DNA of 32,000 bases from Candidatus Iainarchaeum sp. (GCA_028710695.1 JAQTTP010000005.1:30981-62980), one strand, 5' to 3'; shown: positions 5,115-32,000, numbered from the stretch's first letter. The notes: generated by a model from the letters alone, not told the origin. Translations and numbers: made by a program.

Positions 5115-5124
5115 AATAAACCAC

Positions 5125-6627: not shown

Positions 6628-6697
6628 AGATAATTCCTACTAATTAAAGGACTCACAGTATTTTAAATTTAAGCGTTTTTTAAGTTAGTCAAAGTAG

Positions 6698-6904: not shown

Positions 6905-6913
6905 AAAATCACT

Positions 6914-7603: not shown

Positions 7604-7625
7604 TTAAATCATCCTTTTTGATATA

Positions 7626-8825: not shown

Positions 8826-8829
8826 ACAA

Positions 8830-10055: not shown

Positions 10056-10090
10056 TCCATCACCAATTATGGGGGGTAACCAATTTATTT

Positions 10091-10846
10091 TTAATATCTT
10101 GATTTTTTAAGTACAAAAAACAAGGAATCTGAATTTCCTTGAAAAATCTTTCCCAACATATATAGGCAGTTATAAGTTATTTTAAAGTGCGACAATGCAG
10201 CATGTACCTTTGTATGTGGCACTATAAACCCTATACCTTTATCTTCAACAACTTTAAATCCTGCTGTTTTTGCCAATTGATAAAATGATTTTTTTGTATA
10301 AAAGTGAACGTGGTCTGTATTTTTTAAGATTTTAGGCTGTACTATATTATTCCTGAATTTACATATAAGATTTCCTTCATTTGGTACACCAACTATTAAG
10401 ATGCCTTCTTTTTTCAATAATTTGTTCATAGATTGCAAAAGACCCACATCGTCAGGGATGTGCTCCAACATGTGATGAAGAAGGATTACATCAAAAGACT
10501 CTTTTTGAAAACCCGGGTTAAAAGCATCTCTGTGAAAAAAATCAACATTTTTTACAAGTTTCTTTGCCCTCTTTACTCTTATTGGGTTATAATCAATTCC
10601 GGTTATAATGGCATTATTAATTTTTAATAAATGCTTTGTCATTGCACCGTCGCCACAGCCAATATCAAGTATTTTTATTTTCGACAACCCTTTACAAAAT
10701 CTGTTTATAATACTTAATAAATATTCAACTCTCTTCTCATGATGATGTTTATAATGCCCTTTTTCAAGATATGCGGTTTGATCACCAACATACCATTCAT
10801 TAGAGTCAAGTATTTTTTTTGTCACAATAGTTTTAGTTTTAGCCAT
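10091..10846 (-). CDS. Class I SAM-dependent methyltransferase
   Basis: 251 aa. Motif I ILDIGCGDGAMT, GIDYN, FDVILLHHMLEHI. SD GGTGAT 3 nt upstream of the ATG. Confidence 0.8.
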   Translation of the reverse strand: MAKTKTIVTKKILDSNEWYVGDQTAYLEKGHYKHHHEKRVEYLLSIINRFCKGLSKIKILDIGCGDGAMTKHLLKINNAIITGIDYNPIRVKRAKKLVKNVDFFHRDAFNPGFQKESFDVILLHHMLEHIPDDVGLLQSMNKLLKKEGILIVGVPNEGNLICKFRNNIVQPKILKNTDHVHFYTKKSFYQLAKTAGFKVVEDKGIGFIVPHTKVHAALSHFKITYNCLYMLGKIFQGNSDSLFFVLKKSRY

Positions 10847-10857
10847 AAAATCACCAA

Positions 10858-11934
10858 TTATATATTCTTTTTTATGAGTTCAATCTCATAATTTAATATT
10901 ACATTCATATTATATTTTTTAGTTACAAAAAGTCGCGCATTATTACCACTAGTTTTCCAATTTTCTTTATCCAAAATAAAAAATATGTTTTTTGCCATAG
11001 CTTCACTATTTTTTGGTAAACTTAAAAAAGCAGTTTTTCCCACAATTGTGTTATTATGAAACGGCTCAAGATCAGTAGCAATAATTGGCAAGCCGCAAGC
11101 TTGAGCTTCTATTATCGGAATAGCAAAACCCTCATGTAATGTGGCAGTAATGAAAAATTTGGCTTTATTATAATAATCTGGAAGTTTATTATGTGGTATT
11201 GGCCCAAGATAAATCAATCCTTTTTTTCTAGGAATTTCAATTGGCCCCGCACCGATAATTGCTAATTTAAATAACGGAAATTTTTGTCTAACTATGTCAA
11301 AGGTTTTTACAAGATATTCTATCCCTTTTCGCGGTATTAACGATCCAACATAAATTGCATCATACTCTTTGGTTATTTTTTGTGGCTTAAAGAGCTTACA
11401 ATCAACAAAATTCGGCACCAAATACATATTTTTCCACTTTAGCTCATCGATATACATTTTGTCAATCACAAAAGTCAAACTTACGGCATACTTTGTTATA
11501 AACTCACAGAATCTAAATAAAATCTTGTGGAAGACACCATAGTTATAAGTTTTTGCAAGACCCCTATAAGTACCATGTATTGAACAGACAAAAGGGATTC
11601 TTCTAATCTTTGAGACCAGACCTAACAATGCAGATTTAACAAAAGTAGAACCTTCAAGTGCTCTGGTAAAATTTATTTTATATTTTTTACACAATTTAAA
11701 AGTGTAGTAAGCTTGTTTTAAGAGGCTAATTAGTTTAATTTTTGAAGCGGCCACATTAATTATTTTTATATTTGGATATGAAAAAGTTACAGATCCCTTA
11801 TCCACATTTAAAATATAAACGGGCCCTAAATTATCAGCATAATATCTAAATCTGTCCATAAATTGGTCTAGATTTCCTTGTTTTACATATATACTTAGAG
11901 GGTCATTTGGTAATACTAAACAATTATATTTCAT
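10858..11934 (-). CDS. Glycosyltransferase, GT4 family (GT-B fold)
   Basis: C-terminal EGFAIPIIEAQACGLPIIATD (E-x7-E type) motif. The track start at 11946 is TTG. The ATG at 11934 forms an ATGA overlap with the upstream stop and follows GGTGAagaa. Confidence 0.8.
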   Translation of the reverse strand: MKYNCLVLPNDPLSIYVKQGNLDQFMDRFRYYADNLGPVYILNVDKGSVTFSYPNIKIINVAASKIKLISLLKQAYYTFKLCKKYKINFTRALEGSTFVKSALLGLVSKIRRIPFVCSIHGTYRGLAKTYNYGVFHKILFRFCEFITKYAVSLTFVIDKMYIDELKWKNMYLVPNFVDCKLFKPQKITKEYDAIYVGSLIPRKGIEYLVKTFDIVRQKFPLFKLAIIGAGPIEIPRKKGLIYLGPIPHNKLPDYYNKAKFFITATLHEGFAIPIIEAQACGLPIIATDLEPFHNNTIVGKTAFLSLPKNSEAMAKNIFFILDKENWKTSGNNARLFVTKKYNMNVILNYEIELIKKNI

Positions 11935-12809
11935 TTCTTCACCCAAGATTTTGCAACTTCTTCACAAGTTTTAACTTTAATTTTATTCTCACACAAAAAC
12001 TCTAAACTATCCTCAAAGCTTTTACAATTTGCTACGTCTGCAGGATCAAAATAAAAGGTTCCTACTGCATTGTGCTTTTTTATTATTTTGACGGCTTTCT
12101 TGAAAACATCCACAAAATCTCCTGATTTTGCATGCGCAGGAGGATTTGAACGAAAACAATGCCAACTGTCAAAGAGAGGAAAGTAATGTTCTGGACAAAC
12201 CATAAGGGGTAATTCTAAAACAGAGTAATTTTGATTACTAGACTCTAAAAAATTTGTTTTTGACGGATAATATGGCAAACCATATGATTTTGTTCTAGTT
12301 AACATCGTTGAACTTGAATATAAATATCCCAATTCTTCTAATAAAGGGTATACAAACTGTCCATGCAAATTACCTAAATGAGGGGTTCTAAATCCAACAG
12401 GCTTGTAATCAAAATACTTTTTGCATAATTCTTCAAATTTCACTATTTCTCTATTTTGTTCTTTTTGAGTTATTTTATTAAAAAAATTATTGTTGAATAC
12501 GGAATTAGGATGTGAATAAGTATGATTTATTATTTCGTGACCATCATCAAGAATTTTTCGATGAATTCGCGGATATTTTTCAATCCATTTACCTATGCAG
12601 GCAAAAGAACTTTTTATGTTATAGGAATTAAGCAATTCTAACAAATTAGGTAAGACACCCATATCTGGGGGCATATCACAATCAAAACTTATACTAAAAA
12701 TGCTTTCTTTTAATTTGCTTTGATTTTTTGAAAAATAATTGTTAAGCATAATAGGAGATATTGGTTTAATGACTTTACGAGCAAATTTTCTCAAAAGATT
12801 TATCTGCAT
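11931..12809 (-). CDS. Polysaccharide deacetylase (NodB homology / CE4 family)
   Basis: 292 aa. SFDCDMPPD (TFDDG-like motif 1) and GHEIINHTYSHP (H-x3-H motif 2). SD GTGAT 3 nt upstream of the ATG. Confidence 0.7.
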   Translation of the reverse strand: MQINLLRKFARKVIKPISPIMLNNYFSKNQSKLKESIFSISFDCDMPPDMGVLPNLLELLNSYNIKSSFACIGKWIEKYPRIHRKILDDGHEIINHTYSHPNSVFNNNFFNKITQKEQNREIVKFEELCKKYFDYKPVGFRTPHLGNLHGQFVYPLLEELGYLYSSSTMLTRTKSYGLPYYPSKTNFLESSNQNYSVLELPLMVCPEHYFPLFDSWHCFRSNPPAHAKSGDFVDVFKKAVKIIKKHNAVGTFYFDPADVANCKSFEDSLEFLCENKIKVKTCEEVAKSWVKK

Positions 12810-12883
12810 AATATCACAATCTCAAACATTTACTATATATAAATATAATGTATATATTATTTATATCTTATTGGTGAGATTCC

Positions 12884-14062
12884 ATGGCTTTAAAAGAAGG
12901 ATTTAAAACTAATTTGGTACAGGTTCACCCCGGAATTGTTTACATTTGTGTTTATGGGGCATATAATCCTGAACAGCCACGCATATCAAAACTCGCGGCA
13001 TCATTAGTTAAATCAAATTATAAAATAAAATGGGTTGTTTGTTCAGGCAAAGGAGAAAACATTATCGAAACAAAAGCAAAATCAAAGATCGATTATCTAA
13101 TTAAAGCCACTAAATATTTAAGAAAAACTCTTAAACCACAAGATCTTGTTCTTTGTTATGTACATATTGGTGGAATAGTCGGCTTTTTTTCAACGCTTGG
13201 CAAAAAAACAAAATTTATTTATGATTATCCAGACCCATGGGTTGGATGGTATTACTATAAAACAAAAAATGATAACTTAAATTGGAAGATTGGCAGAATA
13301 TTATTTTTCTGGTTAGAAAAATTGTTGTACAAAAGCGCAGCATATGTTACCACTGCGAGCTTTTCACAATTAGAGTTTTTGCAAAAACAACATGGCAAAA
13401 AAGAAAATTCTGCAGTAATATTAAATTGCCCAGATATTAATATATTTAATAAAAACAATAAAGACGGGGGATTAATTACTAAATTAGGATTAAATAACAA
13501 AACTATTTTAATATATTTGGGGACCATATTAGAAGAATATGGCTGTGATATTTTATTAGATGCATTTTCAGAAATTTATAAAAAAGATCCAAACACACAG
13601 TTATTATTTTTAGGAAAAGCAAAATCACCACAATTTCAAAAAGAATTAGAAAAAAAAGTTTTAAGTTATAAAATAACTAAGGCCGTTACATTTTTACCAC
13701 CTGTGTCAAAAATACAAGTTCCGCAATATTTGAATATTGCAAAAATTGGTTTTGTTCCGTTTAAAAATAGGTTTTATAATAATGTTGGCAGCCCAAACAA
13801 ACTTTTCGAATATCTGGCTTGCGGAGTTGTACCTATTGTTTCGGATATGACTGAATTTAAACACTATATTATCGACAAAAAAAATGGTTTTTTAGTTCAA
13901 CCAGAAAATGTTAAAGAATTAGTCAATAAAACTATCGAAATATTAAACAAAGATTCTGTGAAGGAAATTGTGCACCTAAATGAGAAGTTGGTAAAGGAAA
14001 AATATAACTGGGATTTACAAGAAAAACAATTTTTAAAGATAATAAAAAAAGTAAGCAAATAA
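12884..14062 (+). CDS. Glycosyltransferase, GT4 family
   Basis: 392 aa. GSPNKLFEYLACGVVPIVSD C-terminal GT-B motif. SD attGGTGAgattccATG. The only complete plus-strand gene in the window. Confidence 0.75.
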   Translation: MALKEGFKTNLVQVHPGIVYICVYGAYNPEQPRISKLAASLVKSNYKIKWVVCSGKGENIIETKAKSKIDYLIKATKYLRKTLKPQDLVLCYVHIGGIVGFFSTLGKKTKFIYDYPDPWVGWYYYKTKNDNLNWKIGRILFFWLEKLLYKSAAYVTTASFSQLEFLQKQHGKKENSAVILNCPDINIFNKNNKDGGLITKLGLNNKTILIYLGTILEEYGCDILLDAFSEIYKKDPNTQLLFLGKAKSPQFQKELEKKVLSYKITKAVTFLPPVSKIQVPQYLNIAKIGFVPFKNRFYNNVGSPNKLFEYLACGVVPIVSDMTEFKHYIIDKKNGFLVQPENVKELVNKTIEILNKDSVKEIVHLNEKLVKEKYNWDLQEKQFLKIIKKVSK

Positions 14063-14070
14063 AAAACAGC

Positions 14071-15201
14071 TTATTTCTTGCCCAATTTAGAAATACCAGA
14101 TTTTAAAATTAGATTGTATTCTTTTATGAAATCTTTTATAACTATATTCCAATCAAAATCTTTTGCTTTTATTTTTGCAGATACTGCTAATTTTTCACAA
14201 CTCTTAAAATTGTTACAGACATAAACCATTTTTTTATACAAATCATCACTGTTACCCATTTTAACTTTTAAACCGGTTTTTTCATTTTCTACATAGGGTA
14301 AACTAGTTATTATTATTTTTCCTGCAGCCATTGCTTCTAATAATGCAACTGGTTGCCCAGTTTCAAAGGATGGCAGAACAAATACATCATTGTTCATTAA
14401 AAAGGAGGGCATATCTTTAACCCACCCAAAAAAGGCCACATTTTTAGTTTTATTAACAACAACAAACTTTTCTAATTCGCTTTTCAATAAACCATCGCCG
14501 CCAATATTTAATTTAACATTATATTCTTTTGATAATTTGGTATATGCTTCAAAAAGAATTCTAAGCCCTTTTACTTCTTCAAGCCTACCCATAAAAACAA
14601 ACCTAATTTCTTTCCACGTTTTATTAGTTTTATTAAAATCACCTAAATCTATAGCATTAGTCATAAGCTTATTATTTAATTTTGGATATTTTTGCAGCAT
14701 TTCAGTCCTAGAAATTGGACTTACAAATAAAACTTTGGACGCCCTTTTTATGGCGAAATCATTTAAAAAATATAAAAACTTTTTTATTGGAAAAAACCAA
14801 CCTCTCGGCAACCCATGTGGAGTATAGACTAAGGGGACATTAAATTTATTTTTTAACAAAGCACCAAAAAAGCCACCTACTTGTCCATGCGCATGAATAA
14901 GATCTATTTTTTCTGCCTTTATTATTTCTTTAGCCTTAAAATATGCTAAAAAGTTAAATGATAGGTTTCTTAAAAAAGTATTATTAATAAATGGAACACG
15001 CCAAACTTTTATTTTTCCTGTTGTTTCATACTTACTTTGATTAGGAAATAGTCGAGTAATTATAAATATATTCTGGTTATTTTTTGCAAGAAATCTACTA
15101 AGTTTATCAACATGAATTTCTATTCCGCCAGATGGTTTTTTCTCAAAACCAGCTCCAGAATGAAAAGGCCATTCTTTTGATCCAATTAAAAGTATTCGCA
15201 T
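14071..15201 (-). CDS. Glycosyltransferase, GT4 family
   Basis: 376 aa. SFETGQPVALLEAMAAGKIIITS motif. SD GGGTGAataaATG overlaps the upstream stop. Confidence 0.8.
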   Translation of the reverse strand: MRILLIGSKEWPFHSGAGFEKKPSGGIEIHVDKLSRFLAKNNQNIFIITRLFPNQSKYETTGKIKVWRVPFINNTFLRNLSFNFLAYFKAKEIIKAEKIDLIHAHGQVGGFFGALLKNKFNVPLVYTPHGLPRGWFFPIKKFLYFLNDFAIKRASKVLFVSPISRTEMLQKYPKLNNKLMTNAIDLGDFNKTNKTWKEIRFVFMGRLEEVKGLRILFEAYTKLSKEYNVKLNIGGDGLLKSELEKFVVVNKTKNVAFFGWVKDMPSFLMNNDVFVLPSFETGQPVALLEAMAAGKIIITSLPYVENEKTGLKVKMGNSDDLYKKMVYVCNNFKSCEKLAVSAKIKAKDFDWNIVIKDFIKEYNLILKSGISKLGKK

Positions 15202-16311
15202 TTATTCACCCAACCTTTTTATAGTACTAACAACTTTAATTAAATCTTCTTTCTTTAATAAAGGATGAACCGGCAGACTTACAACTTCTTTTGCAAGTTT
15301 TTCTGAAACGGGGAAATCTCCTTCTTTATAACCCAATTTTTGGAATTGAGGATGTAAATGTAATGGTTTAGGATAATAAATTCCAGGGAATATTTCTTGT
15401 TCTTTTAATTTTGCAACAAAGGTATCCCTATTCATTGGAAATTCACTAGTTATTCTAATTGTAAACTGATGCCAACAAGGCTCATGGCCTTCCTCAACAA
15501 CAGGCAATATTAGCCCCTTTATACCCTTCAAATTTTTCAACAGGTATTTTGCATTTTTTTGCCTCTTCTGTGTAAATTTGTCCAACCTATCTAACTGAAC
15601 TAAAGCAATACTTGCTAAAACATCAGTTAATCTATAATTATACCCTAAATCTACATATGCATAATCACCAGATTGTTGCATCCCATGCTGTCTAAATCTT
15701 TTTGCCCGTTCCATAACCTCTTCCGAATTTGTTGTTAACAACCCACCTTCTCCAGACATCATATTCTTAGTCGCATATAAACTAAATGCGCCTGCATTAC
15801 CTAAATTACCTGCAAATTTGTCTTTGTATTTAGCATTATGTGATTGACAAGCATCTTCCAAAACTACAAGATTATGTTTCTTTGCAATTGCATTAATTAA
15901 ATCCATATCACAACACAAGCCATAAAGATGTATTGGCAAAATTGCTTTTGTTTTTGAAGTTATTTTTTCTTCTATTTTTGTAGGGTCAATGTTAAATGTT
16001 TTCTCGTCAACATCTACAAAAATTGGTTTAGCACCAAGCATAATTGCAGGATTTGCGCTAGCAACAAATGTAAATGGCGTTGTGATTACTTCATCGCCTG
16101 ATCCTATTCCCAAGCCATAAAGCCCAGCATGTAAAGCAGCAGTTCCAGAATTTAAAGCCACACAATATTTTGTGCCTACTTTTTCAGCAAATCTTTTTTC
16201 CAACTCTGCAACTTTTGGGCCTTGTGCAAGCATTCCTGATTTTAATACTTCCATTACTGCTTTTCTTTCTTTTACATCCAAATATGGTTTTGAAACCGTT
16301 ATTTTACTCAT
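15202..16311 (-). CDS. DegT-family UDP-sugar aminotransferase (WbpE-like)
   Basis: 369 aa. KPYLDVKERKAVMEVLKSGMLAQGPKVAELEKRF N-terminus, LNSGTAALH, EDACQSH, and SLYATKNM with the candidate PLP lysine. Sits in wbpB-wbpD-wbpE-like order. Confidence 0.85.
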   Translation of the reverse strand: MSKITVSKPYLDVKERKAVMEVLKSGMLAQGPKVAELEKRFAEKVGTKYCVALNSGTAALHAGLYGLGIGSGDEVITTPFTFVASANPAIMLGAKPIFVDVDEKTFNIDPTKIEEKITSKTKAILPIHLYGLCCDMDLINAIAKKHNLVVLEDACQSHNAKYKDKFAGNLGNAGAFSLYATKNMMSGEGGLLTTNSEEVMERAKRFRQHGMQQSGDYAYVDLGYNYRLTDVLASIALVQLDRLDKFTQKRQKNAKYLLKNLKGIKGLILPVVEEGHEPCWHQFTIRITSEFPMNRDTFVAKLKEQEIFPGIYYPKPLHLHPQFQKLGYKEGDFPVSEKLAKEVVSLPVHPLLKKEDLIKVVSTIKRLGE

Positions 16312-16324
16312 ATATTATCACTCA

Positions 16325-16819
16325 CTATTTACCAATTGGAAAACCATTTTTTCCTACTTTCTTAACTACTTTTGCGGGATTTCCAACAACCAAAGAGTAT
16401 GGGGGTACATCTTTTGTTACTACTGCGCCAGCACCAATAACACTATATTCTCCTAAAGTTATGCCACAAACAATTACTGCGCCAGCACCAATTGACACCC
16501 CGTCTTTAACTTCTGTTTTTGTTAATTTATCATCATTCCAGATCTCTGCCCGAGGATACAAATCATTTGTAAAAGTAGCATTTGGGCCGACAAAAACATT
16601 ATTCCCAATTGTAACTCCATGATAAACATTTACATTGTTTTGGAATTTACAGCCATTTCCTATTTTAACCCCAGAATCAACGTACACACAATGTCCAAAA
16701 ATACAATTCTCACCAATTTCTGTGTTTTTACATATATGAACAAAATGCCATATTTTTGTTCCTTTTCCTATTTTTGCGCCATCATCACATACTGCAGTAG
16801 GATGTATAAAATAATCCAT
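16325..16819 (-). CDS. Left-handed beta-helix N-acetyltransferase (WbpD/WlbB-like)
   Basis: Hexapeptide repeats. KFQNNVNVYHGVTIGNNVFVGPNATFTNDLYPRAE closely recalls WbpD-type UDP-2-acetamido-3-amino-2,3-dideoxy-glucuronate N-acetyltransferases. The track start at 16828 is GTG. I prefer the ATG at 16819 after aaGTGATgtttATG. Confidence 0.8.
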   Translation of the reverse strand: MDYFIHPTAVCDDGAKIGKGTKIWHFVHICKNTEIGENCIFGHCVYVDSGVKIGNGCKFQNNVNVYHGVTIGNNVFVGPNATFTNDLYPRAEIWNDDKLTKTEVKDGVSIGAGAVIVCGITLGEYSVIGAGAVVTKDVPPYSLVVGNPAKVVKKVGKNGFPIGK

Positions 16820-16824
16820 AAACA

Positions 16825-17814
16825 TCACTTAAAATTCTTTTTCAAACTCTCCAAAAGTATTATCCCATTCAAAGCATCATCTATGCTAACATATGGTTCT
16901 TCTGTGCCCGCAATACAACTTAAAAAGTTTTCAATTTCCATTAAAAGCGGTTCTTTCTTTTCAACAAGTATTTTTCTTTCTTCACCAACAGTAACGCCAG
17001 TTAATATTTGCTGATATTCTATATTCTCTTTATGTTTCCCATTTTCATAAAAGGTAATTTCCTGGGTAATATAATCTAGGCTCAACAGCCCTTTTTTTCC
17101 GCAAATATATAATTTTCTTATTTTTGTGGGAGATAAAATATCTGTAGATAAATTTATTACAATATTTTCTTTTGTCTTCATTAAAACTCTTATAATATCT
17201 GGATCTTTTTTATTTATGAAATTGTGTGTTTGTAAACAAGCATAACTTACACAATCACCCATTTTACCAAGTAAGTAATTTATTATTTCTAAATCGTGTA
17301 TTCCTAAGTCTGTTAGAACATCTACATCTACTACACCTGGTGGATATGGCCCTTGCCTCAAGATATTAATATAAAAAATTTTTCCTAACTCCCCCCTAAA
17401 AACAAGATCTATTACTTTTCTTACTGCTGGATTATATCTTTCAATCTGACCAACAACACAAGTAACTCCTGCTTTTTTAATAATATCTTTAATTTCTTCA
17501 GCTTCTTTAACAGATGGTGCTGCCGGTTTTTCTAGTAAAATATTAATTTTCTTTTGAGCCACCTTTTCCACTATTGCCTTATGCAACATAGTAGGAACAC
17601 ATATTGACACCCCATCTAACTGTTCGTTATTCAACATTTCATCCAAATCATAATACGCCTTACATTTGTATTTTTCCGAGAACTCATCACATTTTTTCTT
17701 ATTAGAATCACATATTGCAACTAGTTCAACATCTGGCCTTTCAAAATAAATTCTTGCATGGTTTTTTCCCATATTTCCAACACCAATTACTGCAATTTTT
17801 GGCACATTACTCAT
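16825..17814 (-). CDS. Gfo/Idh/MocA-family NAD-dependent oxidoreductase (WbpB-like)
   Basis: 329 aa. N-terminal KIAVIGVGNMGKNHARIY Rossmann motif and EKPAAPS motif. First gene of the operon. SD gtaGGTGAttttATG. Confidence 0.78.
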   Translation of the reverse strand: MSNVPKIAVIGVGNMGKNHARIYFERPDVELVAICDSNKKKCDEFSEKYKCKAYYDLDEMLNNEQLDGVSICVPTMLHKAIVEKVAQKKINILLEKPAAPSVKEAEEIKDIIKKAGVTCVVGQIERYNPAVRKVIDLVFRGELGKIFYINILRQGPYPPGVVDVDVLTDLGIHDLEIINYLLGKMGDCVSYACLQTHNFINKKDPDIIRVLMKTKENIVINLSTDILSPTKIRKLYICGKKGLLSLDYITQEITFYENGKHKENIEYQQILTGVTVGEERKILVEKKEPLLMEIENFLSCIAGTEEPYVSIDDALNGIILLESLKKNFK

Positions 17815-22747: not shown

Positions 22748-23395
22748 TCACTCTTTTCTGACAATTGTTATTGTCCAGCCTCTTTTACCATAACCCTTGT
22801 AATATTCTTCAACTTTAAAGAATTGCGATAGTAGATTAGTCATATTTAACCGATCTATCATCTGAACATACGGCTTAGTCTGATCTTTCTTTTGTTTTAT
22901 TTTTTTATCATCATCATAATCTGCAGTATTCGAGGAGTATACTAAACCATATCCACCTTTCTCTAAAATATCCGACATTTTTTCTACAACATATGGCGCC
23001 ATTGAAGAATCAAACTGGTTCAAAAAAGATCCAGCTACCAAACCGTGGAATTTTTCTTCAGGTTCCCATTCTAAAAAACAGTTGTTGTAGAACTTTGCTT
23101 TAGGGCTATTTTGTTGAGCATGTTTTATCATTTCTTTAGACACATCAACACAGGACACATTAAAGTCATACTTAAAATGTTCTGTAAGTATGAACGAGTT
23201 TAATCCAACTCCACATCCAAGGTCAGCAATTCTTGCACCAGTTCCAAAATTAGAGTGAACCTTTTCTGCAAATGGTTTTATCACTTTGTATTGATTGTCT
23301 ACGAAATTTACCCACCTAGAGTTATAATCGTCGGCCAACAAATCGTAGTACTCCACCAATTGTTTTTGGCTTTTGTTAATTTGTTTTCCGCACAT
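22748..23395 (-). CDS. Class I SAM-dependent methyltransferase (apparently leaderless mRNA)
   Basis: 215 aa. Motif I IADLGCGVGLNS. No SD. A TTTATAAA box ends 21 nt upstream of the ATG. Confidence 0.75.
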   Translation of the reverse strand: MCGKQINKSQKQLVEYYDLLADDYNSRWVNFVDNQYKVIKPFAEKVHSNFGTGARIADLGCGVGLNSFILTEHFKYDFNVSCVDVSKEMIKHAQQNSPKAKFYNNCFLEWEPEEKFHGLVAGSFLNQFDSSMAPYVVEKMSDILEKGGYGLVYSSNTADYDDDKKIKQKKDQTKPYVQMIDRLNMTNLLSQFFKVEEYYKGYGKRGWTITIVRKE

Positions 23396-24087: not shown

Positions 24088-24125
24088 TTGTGTAGTCTAT
24101 GATTTCGTGTGTAGTCTTTGATTTT
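24088..24125. repeat. Two-copy tandem direct repeat (period 19) in the 23S 3' trailer
   Basis: gtgtagtctatgattt (24090-24105) and gtgtagtctttgattt (24109-24124), 15/16 identical, starting right at the 23S 3' end. Confidence 0.6.
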
Positions 24126-27059
24126 AAAGGTCCTCTTATGCTATTAGTACTGGTCAGCTGAATATCTCGCCGAAGCTCGATACTTACACTTCCAGCCTAT
24201 CAACCCAGTCTTCTACTGGCGCATTAGTCTGTCCGAAGACAGAGTGACGATCTATTTTCAGGGGGGACTTCAAGCTTAGATGCTTTCAGCTTTTATTCCT
24301 TACGGCGTGGCTACCCAGCGCTGCCCTCCCGGACAACTGGTAGACTAGAGGCCGCGACCTTTTGTTCCTTTCGTACTAGAAAGATCTTCCCTTCAGATCA
24401 TCAACAGTCCCAACAGATAGTAAACAAACTGGCTCGCACCGTTCTTAACCCAGCTCACGTACGGCTTTAATGAGTTAACCCCTCCACCCTTGGCTGCTTA
24501 TGCACAGCCAGGATGCCATGAGCCGACAACGAGGTAGCAAACCGCGGGGTCGATATGTACTCTTGCCCGCGACAACCCAGTTACCCCCAGGGTAGCTTCA
24601 CTATCAGACCAGACTGCCACCAAAGCAGTACTGACGATCATTAAGCCCTTCTTTCGAATCTGCATTCCTTGTTTTGCAGAACACAGTCAAGCCTGCTTTT
24701 GCCCTTACACTCGACAGGATGTTCCTAACACCCCTGAGCAGACCTTTGGGTTCCCCTGATACCTTTTCAGGGGAGTACCGCCCCAGCCAAACCACCAACT
24801 CTGCAGGTGTCCCCCTTTCGGGGTGAGTCTTAGAATTTCTAAAGGTTAGTGTCCCATTGACGTCTCCACAGTTCCTGACGAAACTGCTTCGAAGACTACT
24901 AACTACGCTGCACATCAAAAATTCTAAAACAGCAACAGATTGTGGTAAAGTTCCGTGGGGACTTCACCTCCCATTGGGACGCCGTGGCATATTCACCACG
25001 CAGTGGGTTCGTCGAGTTATAGTTAGGGACAGTGGGAATCTCGTTACTCCATTAATGCAAGTCGGCATTAAACCGACAAGGTATTACGCTACCTTAAGAG
25101 CCTCAGAGTTAGGCCCGCTCTTTACCAGCGCTTAGACCCCTTGAAAAGGGTTTTCACGTACTGGCAGTGAGCAGAAGTCGGCCCCTATACTAATCTTTTC
25201 AGACTCGCAGGGACCTACGTTTTTGATAAACAGTCGGACTCCCCTTGTTAGTGTCACCTACAGTTTACACAACTGCAGGCACCCCTTATACCAAAGATAC
25301 GGGGCTATTTTGCCGAATTCCCTTAACTATATTCTCTCGATACGCCTTGGCCTTCTCAGCCAGGGGCACCTTTCCCGGTTCTCGGTACGATCTGATGGAA
25401 TCCTTATGATCTTTCTTTTCATGGTTACCAGGTGTGAAAAACAGCTTTCGCCCCATCACCTCTTAAAGCCCTTCTCGTCATTATAACTCTCCAGGCTTAT
25501 ATTAGGATTGGATATTCTGGGAAGAATACGTTTTCTAACCCAATAAGTCAAAAGATCATCTATTGTTACCAAGTTGTATCCATCAGGTACAGGAATATGA
25601 ACCTGTTTCCCTTTCCCCCCACTCGTGTTACGATGGGGGTTAGGATCGACTAACCCTTAGCTGATGATCAGTGCTAAGGAACCCTAGCCCTTTCAGCGGA
25701 GAGGGTTCTCACCTCTCATAGCTATTACTACCGCTAGGATCAATATTCCATATAGGTCCACAAGAACTCACGCCCTTGCTTCTGCCCTATAAGAAAACCT
25801 TCTTACAAGATATTACATACAATGCAATCTGCATGGTATCGGTGGTCTGTTTTAGCCCCGTATATTTTTGGTGCCCTCACTCTCGGAAGGTGAGTTGTTA
25901 CACACTCTTTAAATGATAGCTACTTCTGAGCTTACATTCCCTCTGTCTTAGAGTAAAGACGCCCTTTATTTGCACTTAACAGACACTTTGGGACCTTAAC
26001 CACGCGCAGGGTTGTTTCCCTTTCGGACCGGAAGCTTACCCCCCGGATCCCAACTCCAACCTTCTTAGACAAATGGCGATTCGGAGTTTAACAAAAAAGC
26101 CGAGGATCTCTCCCCAATACTTTTTGATCAGTGCTCTACCCACCATTTCGTCTCAGGTCAAGCTAACCTTAGAGCTATTTCAGAAGGAGCCTGCTATCAC
26201 CAAATTCGCATAGATTATCGCTCCCACTCCCAGGTCACCTAAACAGTTAGTCTAGAACTAGAAACGGACCTCCACCCCTTTGTAAAAGGGTTTCATCCTG
26301 CCCAGGAGTAAATCATTTGGTTTCAGGTCTGGTATCTGTGACTAAAGACGGATTAGCATCCTTGTCCTCACTAAAAGTTGCGACAACTCGGTTTCCCTAC
26401 GCCTACGAGGTTTAACCCCTTAAGCTTGCCACAGACACAAATTCCCTAGCCCGTGCTTCGTGACGAACGACGTAACACTGTACAGAGCGCTTCGTTACCT
26501 TAGGCGCTCTACCTTTTGTGCCGCGTCCACCTATTACCATTTGGTTTCAGGTGCTTTTAACTCCCTACCAAGGGTGCTTTTCAACTTTCCCTCACGGTAC
26601 TCGTTCGCTATCGGTCTTGGAAGAATGTTTAAGATTGGGGGTTGGTAACCCCCGTATTCATACGCAAATGCCAATGCGTATTACTCTCGGTTACTATCGG
26701 ATCTTTCTCTCTTATAACTAAGGGGCTATCACCCGCTATGGCGCTTCTTTCCAGAAGTCTTCGTCTTAAAGAGTTAAGACCCTAACTAGACCTCACCACA
26801 TCTCCCACTAATTTCTTAGAGGGATTCAGTTTGTCTTCTGCCCTTTTCCTTCGCCAGTACTAGGGGCATCGCGATTGCTTTCTTTTCCTGCAGGTACTAA
26901 GATGCTTCAATTCCCTGCGTCTCCCCCCCTTTCGGGGTAATTCGGGTATCTCTGGTTCAATGGTTGCGTGCACCTCGCCAGAGCTTTTCGCAGCTTGCCA
27001 CGCCCTTCTTCGGCTTCCAAGCCAAGTCATCCACCAAATGGTTCACTAGGACCCTTAAC
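24124..27059 (-). rRNA. rrl: 23S (LSU) ribosomal RNA
   Basis: Minus strand begins ...GTTAAGGGTCCTAGTGAACCATTTGGTGGATGACTTGGC... and ends ...GCTGACCAGTACTAATAGCATAAGAGGACCTTTAA. The 5' TTAAGGGTCCT and 3' AGGACCTTTAA pair as helix 1. Ends are approximate (+/- ~10 nt). Confidence 0.92.
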
Positions 27060-27061
27060 AC

Positions 27062-27082
27062 TTTACTTGCCTATGCTAACTA
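27062..27082. repeat. 23S processing-stem arm (5' spacer); inverted repeat of 24015-24035
   Basis: Lies 3 nt outside the inferred 23S 5' end; its partner lies ~88 nt beyond the 23S 3' end. Confidence 0.7.
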
Positions 27083-27168
27083 TGTGTGATATAAATATCA
27101 CGAGTTACGCCAGAACAAAAAAACTTGTTCTAACTACTCATAACTCTCGGAAAGTCCATATTTACATA

Positions 27169-27276
27169 TGGACTCAGCGGGAATTGAACCCGCAGCCTCG
27201 GCCTTACTCGCAGCCCCAGAATAAATTCTGGAGTATTGATGCAAGGGCCGCGCTCTCCCAGTTGAGCTATGAGCCC
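27169..27276 (-). tRNA. tRNA-Ala (anticodon UGC) with a 35 nt intron at the canonical 37/38 position
   Basis: Minus strand GGGCTCA TA GCTC AACTGGGA GAGC G CGGCC CTTGCA [intron] A GGCCG AGGCT GCGGG TTCAATT CCCGC TGAGTCC A. It has the G3:U70 alanine identity pair and discriminator A73. No encoded CCA. Confidence 0.9.
27205..27239 (-). other. tRNA-Ala intron (35 nt)
   Basis: Removing TCAATACTCCAGAATTTATTCTGGGGCTGCGAGTA restores a 7 nt anticodon loop CUUGCAA and the 5 bp anticodon stem CGGCC/GGCCG. The intron holds a CCAGAA/TTCTGG hairpin. A UGCG segment could pair with U34-A37. Confidence 0.75.
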
Positions 27277-27289
27277 GTAGACTGTTATT
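27277..27289. repeat. 16S processing-stem arm (3' flank); inverted repeat of 28883-28895
   Basis: gtagactgttatt is the exact reverse complement of aataacagtctac at 28883-28895 (13/13). It directly abuts the tRNA-Ala 5' end. Confidence 0.7.
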
Positions 27290-27310
27290 AAACAATTACG
27301 AAAATTCAGA

Positions 27311-28791
27311 AGGAGGTGATCCGTCCGCAGGTTCCCCTACGGACACCTTGTTACAACTTAGCCCTCCTCACGAAACAAGAAATCGAACTACCATTGAAGT
27401 AGCCCTCATTCTAGCCTCATTCGGGTGGCTTGATGGGCGGTGTGTGTAAGAAGCAGGGACACATTCACCGCGTGATAGTGACACGCGATTACTAGGGATT
27501 CCAGCTTCATGAGAATGAGTTACAATCCTCAATCCGAACCTAGACCGAGTTTCACGGATTACCTCCCCCTCTCGAGTTCGATACCCATTGTCTCGGCCAA
27601 TGTATGCCGCGTGTTGCCCAGAAGATTCGGGTCATACAGACCTATCGTCGCCCACCCCTTCCTCTAGATTGCTCCAGCTGTCCTTTCATAGTGCGCCCTT
27701 CCGAAGAAAGACTAGCAAAAGAAAGCATGGGTCTCGCCCGTTGCCTAAGTTAATAGGACACCTCACGGCACGAGCTGACGATGGCCATACAGCACCTCTC
27801 AGCGTGTCAGGTAACCCCATCAGAGTGACCATCATCCTGCTGTCGCCCCTGGTAAGTTTCTTTGGCGTTGTATCCGATTAAACCGCAGCATCCACCCCTT
27901 GTGGTGCTTCCCCGCCAATTCCTTTAAGTTTCAGCCTTGCGACTATACTCCTCAGGCAGCAGACTTAACGGCTTCCCTACGGCACCCCGCAAATCCAAGA
28001 TTAACGGGACACCTAGTCTGCAACGTTTACAGCTAGGACTAACCGGGTATCTAATCCGGGTCGCTCCCCCAGCTTTCATCCCTCACCGTCAGGTCCGTTC
28101 TCGTAAGTCGCCTTCGCTACTGGTGGTCCTCTATGGATTATCACATTTCACCGCTACCCATAAAATACCACTTACGTCTCCCGGCCTCTAGTCAAGTAGT
28201 ATTCTCTGCAATTCAACAAGTTAAGCTTGTCAATTTCACAAAGAACACACTAAACAGGCTACGGATGTTCTAGGCCCAATATCCACGAGTACCACTTGTG
28301 GAGCACGTATTACCGCGGCGGCTGGCACGTGTCTTACCCTCCACTTATTCGCCAAGTTATTTACACTTGACAAAAGCTAGAAAACTAGCACTAGGAATCC
28401 CCCTATCGCGCTTTCGCGCATTGTAGAATTTTCGCGCCTGCTGCACCCCGTAGGGCTAGGGGCCTTTTCTCAGTCCCCTTCTCCGGGCTCCCCCTTGCAG
28501 GGCCCGTACGGATCTCAGGCTTGGTGGGCCATTACCCCGCCAACAACCTAATCCGACGCAGACCCATCCTAAGGCGCCAGCAAGAAAAGGCTTGCTGACT
28601 TTAATAAAAAGAGCATCCCAGCTTCAATTTACTATGAGGTATTACTCTCAGTTTCCCGAGCTTAACCTCTCCTCAGGGTAGGTTGTCCACGTGTTACTGA
28701 GCCGTTCGCCGAAGGTATCCATATACCTTCCAGACTTGCATGGCTTAGTCGAATTCCTATAGCAGTACTCTCCAGCGGGATCAGCTGGAAT
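27311..28791 (-). rRNA. rrs: 16S (SSU) ribosomal RNA, archaeal type
   Basis: 5' end ATTCCAGCTGATCCCGCTGGAGAGTACTGCTATAGGAATTCGACTAAGCCATGCAAGTC. Internal GTGCCAGCCGCCGCGGTAA. 3' end ...GTAACAAGGTGTCCGTAGGGGAACCTGCGGACGGATCACCTCCT. Length ~1481 nt. Confidence 0.93.
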
Positions 28792-28882
28792 CATATCGCA
28801 ATATTAGTCTAAAAACATTCAGAAATTGGTTTAATTATACACACATTATATTTGGTTAAAAAACTTTCGTTGTGTTCTTACC

Positions 28883-28895
28883 AATAACAGTCTAC
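28883..28895. repeat. 16S processing-stem arm (5' leader); inverted repeat of 27277-27289
   Basis: Perfect 13 bp complementarity bracketing the 16S gene. Neighbouring ACAACGAAA / TTTCGTAATTGT segments could extend it with a bulge. Confidence 0.7.
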
Positions 28896-29018
28896 ATCCT
28901 ACCTAAAATACCTTAGGTAATCATGGGATGGTTCTCAAAAAATGAGAAAACCAACAAAAAAGCACAGCAAAAATCTTTTGCTATGAAGTTTTTATAAAAT
29001 ATAAAGGGACACAAAAGC

Positions 29019-29030
29019 TTTATAAAGGTT
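29019..29030 (-). promoter_or_regulatory. Candidate rRNA operon promoter (AACCTTTATAAA on minus strand); a second TTTATAAA box lies at 28991-28998
   Basis: Same AACC-TTTATAAA element as at 17928-17947 and 23921-23940. It lies ~200-230 nt upstream of the 16S 5' end, leaving room for the leader arm of the processing stem. Confidence 0.45.
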
Positions 29031-29121
29031 TTCGGCTTATTCATTATGTAGATTGAAGTGTCAAGGCTAATTTTTAGTTCATTATTTTAGTCACAAAGTA
29101 AACAAATTAGTAAAGTTTTGT

Positions 29122-30168
29122 CTATTCCGCCACAACTCTATTTCTTCCTTGTTCTTTTGCCTTATACAATCTCTCATCCGCCAAAGACACCAAAAGGTCA
29201 GGACTTGCTTCCTCAGCTTCATTAACACTAGCAACCCCTATACTTATAGTTACTTTACCTACCGAGAACTCAGAGTTATCTATTGCTGACCTAAGCCTCT
29301 CCCCAACAAGCTTTGCACCTTCTTTGTCACAGCTTAAGAGAACAATAAATTCTTCTCCACCCCAACGACAAAGGAAATCTTGGCCTCTTCCAGGTCTATT
29401 TCTTAAACTACTAAACAGAATCTTTGCTAATTTTCTAAGAACTATATCCCCGTTAAGGTGGCCATAGGTGTCATTGATGTTCTTGAAATGGTCTATATCT
29501 ATTATTAATAAGGAGAATACTGCTTTGGTTTTTTTGTAATCTTCTAACTTGTCATTAAAGTTTATTTCAAAAGAACGTCTAATCGAAACTTTAGTCAAAG
29601 GGTCCAACTGTTTGTCTATTACAGATGCAATAAACCGCCCAATAGATGCAAAATATATTGCAGAGATTAGAAGCATTGTCTTTATGTCTTCTCCATACTT
29701 TAATTTTTTTAGTAGAAGATTCTTGCCTTTTATTATTACAATTCCAATAACAGAATCATTGAATACAAGAGGAACCAATAGAGTGCTTTTATCAAACACC
29801 GAGTTAATTAGAACTTTAGTATATCTAAAATTATGTGGTACCATATTATAGGCATAAATTATATTCTTCTTGCCTTTTGGATAAAAATAGATTATTTCTT
29901 TGTCCTCAATTGATTTTAGAATATAATAATTCTCAGGAGTTATCTGATTCAAATCCATTTCTTCCAAATGGCTTGTAGTCTTAGTTCTATTCGCCAAACA
30001 TACAAGAGTATCTTTATCCAGCAAATAAACTCCAATATTTTCTACATCCTTCAGGGTATCCATTATTAATTCCGATACTCTGCTTAAGTTGGTTTCATAT
30101 TTAGAACTCAAGAGTGTACTCAGGGTATAAAGTTCTTTTGCAAGGGCCCACCCCCAAATTTTTTGCAT
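29122..30168 (-). CDS. GAF-like sensor / GGDEF-domain diguanylate cyclase (GGEEF active site, RxxD I-site)
   Basis: Numbering from the track ORF: DPLT (aa 192-195), IIDIDHFKNINDTYGHLNGD (225-244), RGQD (264-267) five residues before GGEEF (273-277; nt 29347-29361). The N-terminal ~160 aa end in LLVPLVFNDSVIGIVIIKG, which looks GAF-like. The track start at 30177 is GTG. The ATG at 30168 follows tAGGTGtcattaATG, which overlaps the transporter's stop. Confidence 0.85.
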   Translation of the reverse strand: MQKIWGWALAKELYTLSTLLSSKYETNLSRVSELIMDTLKDVENIGVYLLDKDTLVCLANRTKTTSHLEEMDLNQITPENYYILKSIEDKEIIYFYPKGKKNIIYAYNMVPHNFRYTKVLINSVFDKSTLLVPLVFNDSVIGIVIIKGKNLLLKKLKYGEDIKTMLLISAIYFASIGRFIASVIDKQLDPLTKVSIRRSFEINFNDKLEDYKKTKAVFSLLIIDIDHFKNINDTYGHLNGDIVLRKLAKILFSSLRNRPGRGQDFLCRWGGEEFIVLLSCDKEGAKLVGERLRSAIDNSEFSVGKVTISIGVASVNEAEEASPDLLVSLADERLYKAKEQGRNRVVAE

Positions 30169-30177
30169 TAATGACAC

Positions 30178-31401
30178 CTATAGGAAGAATGAAAAAATAA
30201 ATAAAATTATTAGAACTAAAACGTCTACATATAACATAGCACGATATAGTTTATATATTCTCCCCCCAAGTGTCGAAAATGATTTTGTAAAGATTAAAAA
30301 TAATAACAAAAATAAGAAAGCACAGAATATTGTCAGATATGATCCAAATACAGTATCCAAAAACTCAATAACTGCTACAGAAAATAAAGACGGAATAGCA
30401 AGAACTATCAAAACTACAAGAGCAATCAATGCAACTTTTTTTATCTTCACTTTGTAATAATCTACAAAGGATGCAACTACAAGCTCGAACAAGGAAATTG
30501 CCGAAGTAAATGCTATCAAAAAAATCAGCAAGAAAAATATTGGACCCAAGAAAACTAGATCTTTAAAGGCCATAGTCAAAACATCAAAAACCAATCTTGG
30601 CCCAGAAGCCAGGTCCAAACCATAACTAAACAAAAAGGAATAGATAATAATTCCAATCAAAACTGATATTAAAATACTAGAAAAAACTACGGCCCCAATT
30701 GTAAAGTTTAGGTTTTCTTTTTTTGAATAACTTGCATAAGTTAGCAGAATCCCAAATCCCAAAGACAAAGAGAACAGAGCATGTGCAAACGCAAGAACGA
30801 TCGTCTTCAAAGATATTGCAGATGCATTAAAACTAAACATATATTTCACCGCAGTCCCAAAGCCTGGGCTTGCCACAGCAAAATATAATAAAACAAATAA
30901 AAATATCACAAACAGCACAGATGAAATATAGTTAACTACATTAACCCCTTTCTTAAGTCCAAATCTTACTGCCAAATAAATTAAAAATACAGTAATAAAA
31001 AAAGCAGCAAACATCAACACGCTTCCAATATAGGAATCAAATGACATAAAGCCGGCAAAGGAAGTAAAGAAATAGCCCAAAGTCCAAGAAGTCACAACAG
31101 AATAGTAACTAAGCACAATAAGTGAAACAAAAATTAAAAACAAAGGAATAAGTAAGACATATTTTGATCTGAACTTTTCCTTAAATAAGCAGATAATAGT
31201 AGTTTTATATTTCTGACCTAAATACATTTCAAAAAAGATCAAAGGAATTCCAAGAATTAAAACAGCAAGAATGTACAAAAACAAGAAGGCAGAACCGCCA
31301 TTACTTCCCATCAAATAAGGAAAACGCCAAACATACCCAAGCCCGATTACTGATGCAATTATATCAAGAAATAATGCTAGTTTCCCAATATGTTCACGCA
31401 T
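30178..31401 (-). CDS. Sodium-dependent transporter, neurotransmitter:sodium symporter (NSS/SNF) family, short form
   Basis: 407 aa, about 11 hydrophobic helices. TM1 signature SVIGLGYVWRFPYL (family consensus GLGNxWRFPY) and TM6 FSLSLGFG. ATG at 31401. Confidence 0.82.
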   Translation of the reverse strand: MREHIGKLALFLDIIASVIGLGYVWRFPYLMGSNGGSAFLFLYILAVLILGIPLIFFEMYLGQKYKTTIICLFKEKFRSKYVLLIPLFLIFVSLIVLSYYSVVTSWTLGYFFTSFAGFMSFDSYIGSVLMFAAFFITVFLIYLAVRFGLKKGVNVVNYISSVLFVIFLFVLLYFAVASPGFGTAVKYMFSFNASAISLKTIVLAFAHALFSLSLGFGILLTYASYSKKENLNFTIGAVVFSSILISVLIGIIIYSFLFSYGLDLASGPRLVFDVLTMAFKDLVFLGPIFFLLIFLIAFTSAISLFELVVASFVDYYKVKIKKVALIALVVLIVLAIPSLFSVAVIEFLDTVFGSYLTIFCAFLFLLLFLIFTKSFSTLGGRIYKLYRAMLYVDVLVLIILFIFSFFL

Positions 31402-31464: not shown

Positions 31465-32000
31465 ATGATTCCTGATTTTCTGAAGAAACATTATCTTTTG
31501 ACCACATTCTTTTTTATATTTATTTTTTTGCCATATCTAATCCTAGAAATCTATGATTATAGTGGACTGTTCAGCTTATTTACAAGGCTTCTTTGTTTTT
31601 CTTCGCTTTTTGTGTTTTGCATAGTTTTGTCTAAATACTTAGAACATAAAAACAAGGCAATAAAAATTACTTTATTTTTTCTATTCTTCTTATATTACCT
31701 CATCACATATGTATTTGCAATATATCTAATCTTCTCAAGAACACCATTTAAAATTATGATTACTATTGAGCTTGGGTTGAATTCAATAACACATGGAATG
31801 GTTGGGATTTTAGGATACTTTAACATTACCCTAGTCCTTATTGCTGTAGTTCTTTTATTTTTACTTACTGGCCACTTCTTCAGAAAAATAACAAAAGATA
31901 TTCACAAAGAGTTTGGAGGAAAGATAATTGGCTTATTACTTCTTGTAAATGTTGTATTCTTAGTAACTGGAAATGACTTGGTAGTTTCTGCAGTAATAGA
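31465..32000 (+). CDS. Polytopic membrane protein, partial (continues beyond right edge)
   Basis: Not in the track because it runs off the edge. ATG at 31465 follows aaaGAGGaaagagaATG. Open to the window end and translates to several hydrophobic helices (MIPDFLKKHYLLTTFFFIFIFLPYLILE...). Confidence 0.55.
   Translation, partial: MIPDFLKKHYLLTTFFFIFIFLPYLILEIYDYSGLFSLFTRLLCFSSLFVFCIVLSKYLEHKNKAIKITLFFLFFLYYLITYVFAIYLIFSRTPFKIMITIELGLNSITHGMVGILGYFNITLVLIAVVLLFLLTGHFFRKITKDIHKEFGGKIIGLLLLVNVVFLVTGNDLVVSAVI

Follow-up and report, generated by a model that had tools for sequence, protein, structure and literature searches.

The 32,000-nucleotide stretch of Candidatus Iainarchaeum sp. DNA analyzed here, referred to below as the window, carries a gene for a protein with a GGDEF domain, the catalytic domain of diguanylate cyclases, beside an archaeal ribosomal RNA (rRNA) operon. 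It raises the question of whether an archaeon can own a genuine cyclase for the second messenger cyclic dimeric GMP (c-di-GMP). The original prediction, made from the sequence by itself, described c-di-GMP as essentially bacterial and archaeal GGDEF domains as rare, in agreement with recent reviews, in which GGDEF proteins are almost absent from archaea (PMC10249747, PMC10086821, PMC5847659). One GGDEF domain is recorded in a finished archaeal genome, and bacterial-type regulators in archaeal metagenome-assembled genomes (MAGs) have been questioned as contamination (Galperin et al. 2018, PMC5847659). The presence of GGDEF is said to "need[s] to be confirmed in archaeal contigs" (Romling 2022, PMC10086821). 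Taken as a whole, the locus is probably best explained by a genuine archaeal cyclase in which a GAF-like sensor precedes the GGDEF domain, coupled to a transporter of the neurotransmitter:sodium symporter (NSS) family and reporting on the solute of that transporter.

The cyclase gene and its catalytic domain

The cyclase gene occupies 29122-30168 on the minus strand and encodes 348 amino acids, from an ATG start at 30166-30168 to a stop codon at 29122-29124. The longest frame in the list of open reading frames (ORFs), 29122-30177 on the minus strand, begins with GTG and specifies 351 amino acids. This form has no exact database match, whereas the 348-residue form starting at ATG is on record; because the orthologous proteins (348-352 amino acids) moreover all begin with MQK or MQN, the start is assigned to the ATG at 30168. 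The identical protein on record, MDD4983842.1, bears the GenBank label "GGDEF domain-containing", so the GGDEF nature of the protein was already known. Among 5.8 billion proteins there are four full-length clusters of this cyclase besides that of the window, at 93, 87, 64 and 59% identity.

The catalytic half comprises residues 189-348 (29125-29604, minus strand). The Pfam GGDEF model (PF00990) matches residues 191-347 at E = 3.4e-40 and spans profile positions 3-161 of 161, while the NCBIfam model TIGR00254 gives 149 bits, its cut-off being 37.4. Of the diguanylate cyclases with solved structures, 45 match at E <= 1e-10, PleD, WspR, DgcZ and DosC among them, and the Pfam scan of the cyclase yields no match to a HAMP domain. 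The claim of the original prediction that this gene encodes every catalytic GGDEF signature is borne out by direct reading of the translation, which contains DPLT (the DxLT motif), IIDIDHFKNINDTYGHLNGD, RGQD and GGEEF. The active-site (A-site) motif GGEEF, residues 270-274 at 29347-29361 on the minus strand, is unchanged in five of five orthologues and throughout an extended alignment of nine sequences. Five residues upstream of it, across the intervening FLCRW, lies the RxxD inhibitory-site motif RGQD (R261-G-Q-D264; 29377-29388, minus strand).

Alignment of cyclase residues 218-347 with PleD residues 320-450 relates these positions to the published PleD numbering. By the offset of this alignment, D224, N232 and D241 correspond to PleD D327, N335 and D344, R261-D264 to R359-D362, G270-F274 to G368-F372, and K338 and R342 to K442 and R446. 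We take PleD D327, N335, D344, K442 and R446 to be the metal, guanine and phosphate ligands, following the published PleD structures. Among the orthologues D224, N232, D241, G270-F274, K338 and R342 are all invariant; in the nine-sequence set D224, N232, D241 and GGEEF also remain invariant, but K338 and R342 do not. Furthermore, GGEEF, D224, D226, N232 and D241 are kept even in relatives at about 30% identity. All catalytic GGDEF signatures are thus intact, and the enzyme is predicted to synthesize c-di-GMP from two molecules of GTP.

The GGDEF domain might, alternatively, have a role in vivo other than making c-di-GMP. It could be a module for nucleotide binding or regulation (for example a sensor of GTP or c-di-GMP, or a regulator of the NSS protein), or an enzyme with another product, such as the cyclic GMP-AMP (cGAMP) of the Hypr subclass, pppGpG or another dinucleotide. 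Bacteria have many GGDEF proteins that lack catalytic activity, and the tight pairing with one transporter described below would suit a dedicated regulatory subunit. No phosphodiesterase or receptor is seen nearby, and c-di-GMP has never been detected in archaea (PMC10249747). Degenerate GGDEF domains, however, usually lose GG(D/E)EF together with the metal and guanine ligands, and here these are invariant down to 59% identity and, for GGEEF and the four residues named above, even at about 30%. The ratio of nonsynonymous to synonymous substitution rates (dN/dS) in the catalytic half, 0.05, argues in the same direction. As for the Hypr subclass, its defining Ser is absent, and the motif GHLNGD places the invariant Asp241 at the PleD D344 position; specificity for GTP is therefore favored and Hypr-type synthesis of cGAMP disfavored. 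Overall, a role other than c-di-GMP synthesis is unlikely, and a diguanylate cyclase remains the preferred assignment.

Archaeal setting and inheritance of the locus

The original prediction called the locus archaeal on the strength of several markers, which the analysis confirms for the rRNA operon, the tRNA intron, GatE and three subunits of the pyruvate:ferredoxin oxidoreductase (POR) that the prediction listed as a four-subunit enzyme. An archaeal rRNA operon (24124-28791, minus strand) lies on the same strand as the cyclase gene and downstream of it. It consists of the 16S rRNA gene at 27311-28791 (minus strand; Rfam SSU_rRNA_archaea, 1358 bits), a 108-nucleotide (nt) transfer RNA (tRNA) gene, tRNA-Ala(UGC), at 27169-27276 (minus strand; Rfam tRNA, 57 bits), and the 23S rRNA gene at 24124-27058 (minus strand; Rfam LSU_rRNA_archaea, 2564 bits). 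The tRNA gene has a 37-nt insertion just after the anticodon; ARAGORN, as run here, reports no tRNA in the whole window, and this intron-bearing gene is recovered by Rfam only. In addition, the window encodes a GatE with a GatB_N domain and a GAD insert, along with the alpha, beta and gamma subunits of POR, each matched by Pfam. MDD4983819.1 matches this GatE at 100% identity, and MDD4983842.1 has exactly the sequence of the cyclase; a single Candidatus Iainarchaeum sp. MAG contig of 62,980 bp encodes both. The next named GatE relatives, at about 46%, belong to Candidatus Diapherotrites. Taxonomy places Iainarchaeum in the Iainarchaeota, kingdom Nanobdellati (DPANN). The host is confirmed as a tiny, uncultured DPANN archaeon, Candidatus Iainarchaeum sp. 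of the phylum Iainarchaeota.

An AT-rich spacer of 330 nt (28792-29121, minus strand) separates the stop codon of the cyclase gene from the 16S rRNA gene. It contains the TATA-like boxes TTTATAAA and TTTATATTTTATAAAA and presumably holds the promoter and leader of the rRNA operon. The operon itself varies among related lineages. In sister lineages the tRNA of the 16S-23S spacer spans 165-177 nt, which indicates a longer intron. In the 93% sister lineage the 23S rRNA gene carries a group I intron (RF00028, 95 bits; L012 8877-9137, L020 5782-6042 and L026 4667-4927, where L numbers denote related contigs), and in the 59% lineage it carries a LAGLIDADG homing-endonuclease ORF (L001 15388-15888). 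The 23S rRNA gene of the window (2935 nt) has neither.

A bacterial-type gene beside an archaeal 16S rRNA gene could arise as an assembly or binning artefact, in which a bacterial fragment with the GGDEF and NSS genes is misjoined to an archaeal contig. GGDEF domains are overwhelmingly bacterial, the nearest named matches outside the family come from bacteria (Planctomycetota, Treponema, Lachnospiraceae and Aquificota), and contamination of archaeal contigs is precisely what Galperin et al. 2018 and Romling 2022 warn of. The possibility was weighed using related contigs drawn from NCBI MAGs, ENA, JGI and Logan assemblies and representing different samples and assemblers. The order NSS-GGDEF-archaeal 16S is shared by at least 13 contigs that were assembled independently and represent five lineages reaching down to 59% identity, and Rfam locates an archaeal 16S rRNA gene a few hundred nucleotides 3' of the cyclase gene in L001-L004, L006, L008, L009, L012, L014, L016, L020 and L026. 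Among the upstream genes of L001 is one for a family-B DNA polymerase of archaeal type. Bacterial homologues reach 49% identity at most, and that in the GGDEF domain only.

The composition of the gene agrees with that of its neighbors. The cyclase gene has a GC content of 0.342 and a GC content at third codon positions (GC3) of 0.30, compared with 0.323+-0.036 and 0.254+-0.054 for the 25 genes of the window, and its codon-usage distance is below the window mean. The original prediction had judged the gene to be ameliorated rather than freshly inserted, and that view is supported by its GC content, GC3 and codon usage, none of which falls outside the range spanned by the 25 genes. It had also raised the prospect of a chimeric contig; because the same junction between GGDEF gene and archaeal 16S rRNA gene recurs on at least 13 independent contigs and the composition is host-like, a chimera is excluded. 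The artefact explanation is effectively refuted.

The genuine gene pair is also maintained by selection. Comparison of the window with the 93% lineage by the Nei-Gojobori method gives a dN/dS of 0.05 for the cyclase gene at a synonymous divergence (dS) of 0.85, and likewise 0.05 for the NSS gene at a dS of 0.97. The sensor and catalytic halves of the cyclase, taken separately, each yield 0.05. Both genes are under strong purifying selection. The 16S rRNA genes of the 87% and 59% lineages are 98.2% and 94.0% identical to that of the window, and that of the 64% lineage 92.4% over its first 700 nt; across these three lineages 16S identity tracks cyclase identity only roughly. With 16S identities of 92-98% and the pair kept throughout, the genes have therefore been carried vertically through divergence of roughly genus to family level. 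The clade is rare, with two species in GTDB and eight contigs in JGI. The gene pair is a genuine chromosomal feature, vertically inherited within a narrow clade whose 16S rRNA genes are 92-98% identical.

The transporter partner and the sensor half

The upstream gene of the pair, at 30178-31401 on the minus strand, encodes a 407-residue protein resembling NSS transporters of the SLC6/LeuT fold. At the junction with the cyclase gene (30169-30182, minus strand) the TAG stop codon of the NSS gene (30178-30180) is overlain by AGGTG and followed, after a 6-nt spacer, by the cyclase ATG at 30166-30168. The sequence reads ...CTA TAG GTG TCA TTA ATG, with 9 nt between stop and ATG, and leaves no space for a promoter or terminator. 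The 16S rRNA ends in ...GGATCACCTCCT, and the junction motif is complementary to this anti-Shine-Dalgarno sequence. The original prediction had proposed that the Shine-Dalgarno sequence of the cyclase gene overlaps the NSS stop codon; the overlap can be read directly, and the same arrangement is present in six loci. There the gaps between stop and ATG are 9, 9, 9, 9, 8 and 5 nt, and a GGTG, GTGAT or GGTGA motif lies over the stop codon in all six, including where TGA replaces TAG.

The NSS gene stands directly 5' of the cyclase gene in every lineage, wherever the upstream sequence suffices. The two proteins have diverged in parallel, with identities to the window of 93/87/64/59% for the cyclase and 91/85/57/58% for the NSS protein. 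Because the gaps are short, an SD-like (Shine-Dalgarno-like) motif lies over the stop codon and divergence runs in parallel, co-transcription and translational coupling of the two genes are well supported as predictions. The gene order suggests that together they may form a module joining solute uptake to a second messenger.

The NSS protein retains the hallmarks of its family with certain departures. It matches the Pfam SNF model (PF00209) at E = 1.4e-31 and scores 74.7 bits with the NCBIfam model Na_transp, for which the cut-off is 50. Its best solved relative is MhsT (4us3), which matches residues 6-382 at E = 3e-37. The motifs GxG..WRFPY of transmembrane helix (TM) 1, FSLSLGxG of TM6 and FTSxxS of TM8 are invariant in the orthologues. 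The roles of Na1 and Na2 residues are presumed here to be those of the published LeuT and MhsT structures. On this basis the Na2 site is kept: T299 and S300 are invariant (AFTSAIS) and align with the SS of MhsT and with LeuT T354/S355. The Na1 asparagine (LeuT N27, MhsT N31, in the GLGN motif) is Tyr23 in the window protein (codon 31333-31335), and the position of MhsT Asp263 and LeuT N286 is S or N in the family. Its nearest relatives, at ~445 amino acids, are longer by about 40 residues, and outside the clade the identity of the protein is about 35%, to NSS proteins of that length, the named ones being from Bacteroidota. These features suggest that the partner may have altered ion coupling, acting as a one-sodium or proton-coupled carrier, or may be a sensor-like "transceptor".

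The N-terminal, sensor half of the cyclase comprises residues 1-188 (29605-30168, minus strand). The original prediction described the protein as an intact GAF-GGDEF cyclase. The GGDEF part of that description and the SNF assignment of the partner both stand on strong profile matches; the GAF part finds no such match, the best of the GAF models (PF01590, PF13185, PF13492) being GAF_2 at E = 0.071, and is supported by the predicted fold instead. Pfam leaves residues 1-190 of the full protein without any domain at E <= 0.01. In the Pfam scan of the N-terminal half SpoVT_C reaches E = 0.13, and a sequence-profile search of the sensor half against the PDB places fRMsr/GAF chains at E = 0.05-0.6, which is non-significant.

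The AlphaFold2 model of residues 1-192 has a mean predicted local distance difference test score (pLDDT) of 73 and a predicted template-modeling score (pTM) of 0.75. It shows two helices, two strands, a further helix, five strands and a long C-terminal helix at residues 162-188, with a GAF-fold core at about residues 24-150. The N-terminal helix is conserved and contains the invariant LLSSKYETNL. The linker helix 162-188 continues straight into the DxLT motif, the same design as in bacterial cyclases regulated through a helix. When the model is compared with the PDB by Foldseek, GAF domains make up the whole of the 50 matches listed, at E values of about 1e-5, a probability of 1.0 and template-modeling scores of 0.45-0.69; they include fRMsr, phytochrome GAF domains, PtsP-GAF, the Lcd1 GAF domain with cAMP, and IsPadC. 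On these structural grounds the sensor half is predicted to adopt a GAF-like fold. An fRMsr-like enzyme was considered because the top fold matches are fRMsr, and was dropped because the catalytic Cys residues are absent: of the Cys positions of fRMsr-type GAF domains only C57 is present, and not in every lineage.

A profile of the sensor half, searched against 1.84 billion representative proteins, retrieves only its own family (P0003) and five others. These five match at E values from 4.5e-8 to 2e-4, and all have a C-terminal GGDEF domain with an intact GGEEF. Four of the five can be placed, and each of these either lies on an archaeal (DPANN) contig or falls in a cluster with a DPANN name. 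The P0241 and P0242 genes are divergent from a gene for an archaeal-type triose-phosphate isomerase (NF003302, 232 bits; L015 421-1074 and L017 551-1201). A 32.6-kb contig carries the P0244 gene beside those for Pus10, topoisomerase VI A/B and a Dim2-type KH protein, and the P0243 cluster holds a protein named by NCBI "Candidatus Micrarchaeia archaeon". Every placeable sensor relative is therefore in DPANN archaea. The adjacency to triose-phosphate isomerase constitutes a second conserved neighborhood, unlike the pairing with NSS.

A single archaeal GGDEF clade that includes these Micrarchaeia-type relatives is disfavored by the GGDEF domain itself, which is 45-48% identical to bacterial domains but 27-40% identical to those of the DPANN sensor relatives. 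Because the GGDEF domain is nearer to bacterial ones, the link to the Micrarchaeia-type relatives depends on the sensor domain only. One ancient archaeal GAF-GGDEF family is plausible but not proven. The same bacterial kinship could also mark an orphan operon, recently transferred from bacteria and tolerated without an integrated role, since the closest named relatives of both proteins outside the clade are bacterial (about 45-48% for the GGDEF domain and about 35% for NSS) and the distribution is as narrow as the database counts above show. Such a transfer is hard to reconcile with a pair that has been kept in place down to 59% protein and 92-94% 16S identity under strong purifying selection, with fully ameliorated composition and no close bacterial donor for either gene. 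Furthermore, the relatives of the sensor occur only in other GGDEF proteins, and those that can be placed lie on DPANN contigs or in the DPANN-named cluster. A recent, unintegrated acquisition is accordingly very improbable.

A proposed circuit and its place among known systems

The preferred reading of an archaeal GAF-GGDEF cyclase coupled to its transporter can be drawn as a circuit. By analogy with solved bacterial enzymes, the cyclase would be a soluble cytoplasmic protein that dimerizes through the helices flanking the GAF domain. A small ligand bound in the GAF pocket would shift the linker helix that ends in DxLT, and this shift would bring two GTP-loaded GGDEF domains together to form c-di-GMP. 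The product, bound at the RxxD site, could then limit output by feedback. The NSS protein and the cyclase would be made together, because their genes are predicted to be co-transcribed and translationally coupled. Most likely, the cyclase would serve to report on the NSS solute, probably an amino acid, by one of two input routes: the GAF domain may sense the imported solute, or the cyclase may dock onto the transporter. Within this scheme we infer four things: catalysis by the cyclase, its ligand, its functional tie to the transporter and the events downstream of c-di-GMP.

Several observations weigh against this circuit. Scans for its other parts, covering the window and about 130 kb of related loci, find no EAL or HD-GYP domain in the scanned window ORFs or the Pfam-annotated flanks of related loci, no PilZ domain among the scanned window proteins or annotated flanks, and no c-di-GMP-I or c-di-GMP-II riboswitch at the gathering threshold in the window and 19 loci. 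The inhibitory site reads RGQD, RNHD, REQD and RGQD in four of the five lineages and KNLD in the most distant; such an RxxD allosteric site is found in many, not all, diguanylate cyclases. At the position equivalent to LeuT N27 the window protein and its orthologues have Y/Y/Y/H/L, so that the partner may not be a conventional transporter. GAF_2 reaches its best value when the N-terminal half is scanned alone, and appears in only two of the five orthologues, and the sensor model, built from a five-sequence alignment, is of moderate confidence. The closer identity of the GGDEF domain to bacterial domains counts on the same side. All data are derived from metagenomes, and a 2023 review states that no archaeon has ever been found to contain c-di-GMP (PMC10249747).

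A bolder proposal, which we regard as possible though rather doubtful, extends the circuit to DPANN archaea at large. It holds that c-di-GMP is a real second messenger there, made by an active GAF-GGDEF family restricted to archaea (Iainarchaeota and Micrarchaeia). An NSS "transceptor" would supply the input by reporting external amino acids, possibly derived from a host. Output would pass through receptors that have no kinship with PilZ, EAL or riboswitches; alternatively, the cells would release the dinucleotide to act on neighboring bacteria. If true, the proposal would give the domain Archaea its first c-di-GMP pathway.

Other genes surround the pair at greater distance. On the plus strand, 31486-32000 is an open frame that diverges from the pair, contains the 5' part of a gene for a multi-pass membrane protein and runs off the window. 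The 171-residue fragment has no Pfam match; at the equivalent position L008 and L005 encode a membrane protein of the Sulfatase family (PF00884) with 582-583 amino acids. About 11 kb beyond the rRNA operon lies a 15-kb cluster for surface-glycan synthesis (2818-17814). It encodes a UDP-N-acetylglucosamine (UDP-GlcNAc) 2-epimerase, a UDP-sugar dehydrogenase, a Wzx-like flippase, two DegT aminotransferases, three S-adenosylmethionine (SAM) methyltransferases, three GT1/GT4 glycosyltransferases, a polysaccharide deacetylase, a hexapeptide acyltransferase and a GFO/IDH oxidoreductase. In bacteria, c-di-GMP classically targets the synthesis of exopolysaccharides; here the cluster and the cyclase gene share proximity only.

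On the far side of the rRNA operon the window has a methyltransferase gene at 22748-23395. The 64% lineage has a class-I SAM methyltransferase gene between the cyclase and 16S rRNA genes (L005 5848-6564, L006 1646-2380). ORFs of 61 residues occur near the pair or the rRNA operon in four related contigs (L001 8306-8491, L004 958-1143, L005 1296-1481 and L016 7972-8157); they have no Pfam match and are likened to one another by length only. Finally, an ORF with a Cys-rich segment (…CIPGLCGNGVVDDGEQCDDGGVKSGDGCSQTCKIE…) enters the window from its left end (1-912, minus strand) and resembles a secreted repeat protein.

The literature search returned no paper on an archaeal diguanylate cyclase and none linking Iainarchaeota or Diapherotrites with diguanylate cyclases or c-di-GMP; one groundwater study counts diguanylate cyclase genes over ultra-small bacteria and archaea together. 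The locus supplies the confirmation in archaeal contigs that reviews have asked for, with an intact cyclase gene 330 nt from an archaeal 16S rRNA gene in many assemblies. A soluble protein of 348 residues with a defined input hypothesis also makes the question of archaeal c-di-GMP testable at the bench. If the enzyme is active, c-di-GMP signaling reaches the third domain of life, and with it cells that have reduced genomes and may be symbiotic, and the question becomes which receptors read the signal, the classical ones not being evident.

A comparison with the GGDEF proteins reported earlier from archaea sets the window cyclase apart. The earlier set includes CAJ37382 of Methanocella arvoryzae and a REC-degenerate-GGDEF protein of Ca. 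Micrarchaeum acidiphilum (PMC5847659), as well as more than 300 GGDEF BLAST hits in archaea, many of them in Asgard and DPANN MAGs (Braun et al. 2021, PMC8646023). By their descriptions, these are either unverified for contamination or degenerate, whereas the window cyclase is intact, linked to a 16S rRNA gene and under purifying selection. A precedent for a transporter-fold input to a cyclase is provided by Sd-Amt1, a receptor resembling ammonium transporters (PDB 8qj3; PMC11152129), which joins a transporter-fold protein to a cyclase output in the same "transceptor" logic as that proposed for the window pair, and whose GGDEF domain matches the window cyclase at E = 1.7e-19. Sd-Amt1 is a single Amt-HAMP-GGDEF polypeptide; in the window, NSS and GAF take these places in two coupled genes, separated by a stop codon and, across the loci, a gap of 5-9 nt.

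Despite the distance between their hosts, the window cyclase and the bacterial sensor-GGDEF cyclases (PleD, WspR, DgcZ, DosC and IsPadC, 5llw) have the same catalytic domain, signature residues, RxxD site and long sensor helix leading into DxLT. In IsPadC, a phytochrome-linked diguanylate cyclase (PDB 5llw), the GAF domain is itself among the fold matches of the window sensor. The differences are that the host of the window cyclase is archaeal, that its sensor is too divergent for the Pfam GAF models, and that its best bacterial GGDEF identity is 48%. The NSS partner likewise shares the TM1, TM6 and TM8 motifs with MhsT and LeuT; those proteins have about 445-520 amino acids and the Na1 asparagine, in contrast to 407 amino acids and Y, H or L in the window family. 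Outside Bacteria, the closest parallel is DgcA of Dictyostelium, which is said to have been proven experimentally to be a diguanylate cyclase by Chen and Schaap in 2012, its c-di-GMP reportedly serving as a secreted morphogen. To our knowledge it is the only characterized diguanylate cyclase that is not bacterial. Both it and the window cyclase are GGDEF enzymes with non-bacterial hosts, and both presumably descend from bacterial ones. Set beside these systems, the window cyclase is a well-authenticated addition to the known GGDEF family in an unexpected domain of life, rather than a new system.

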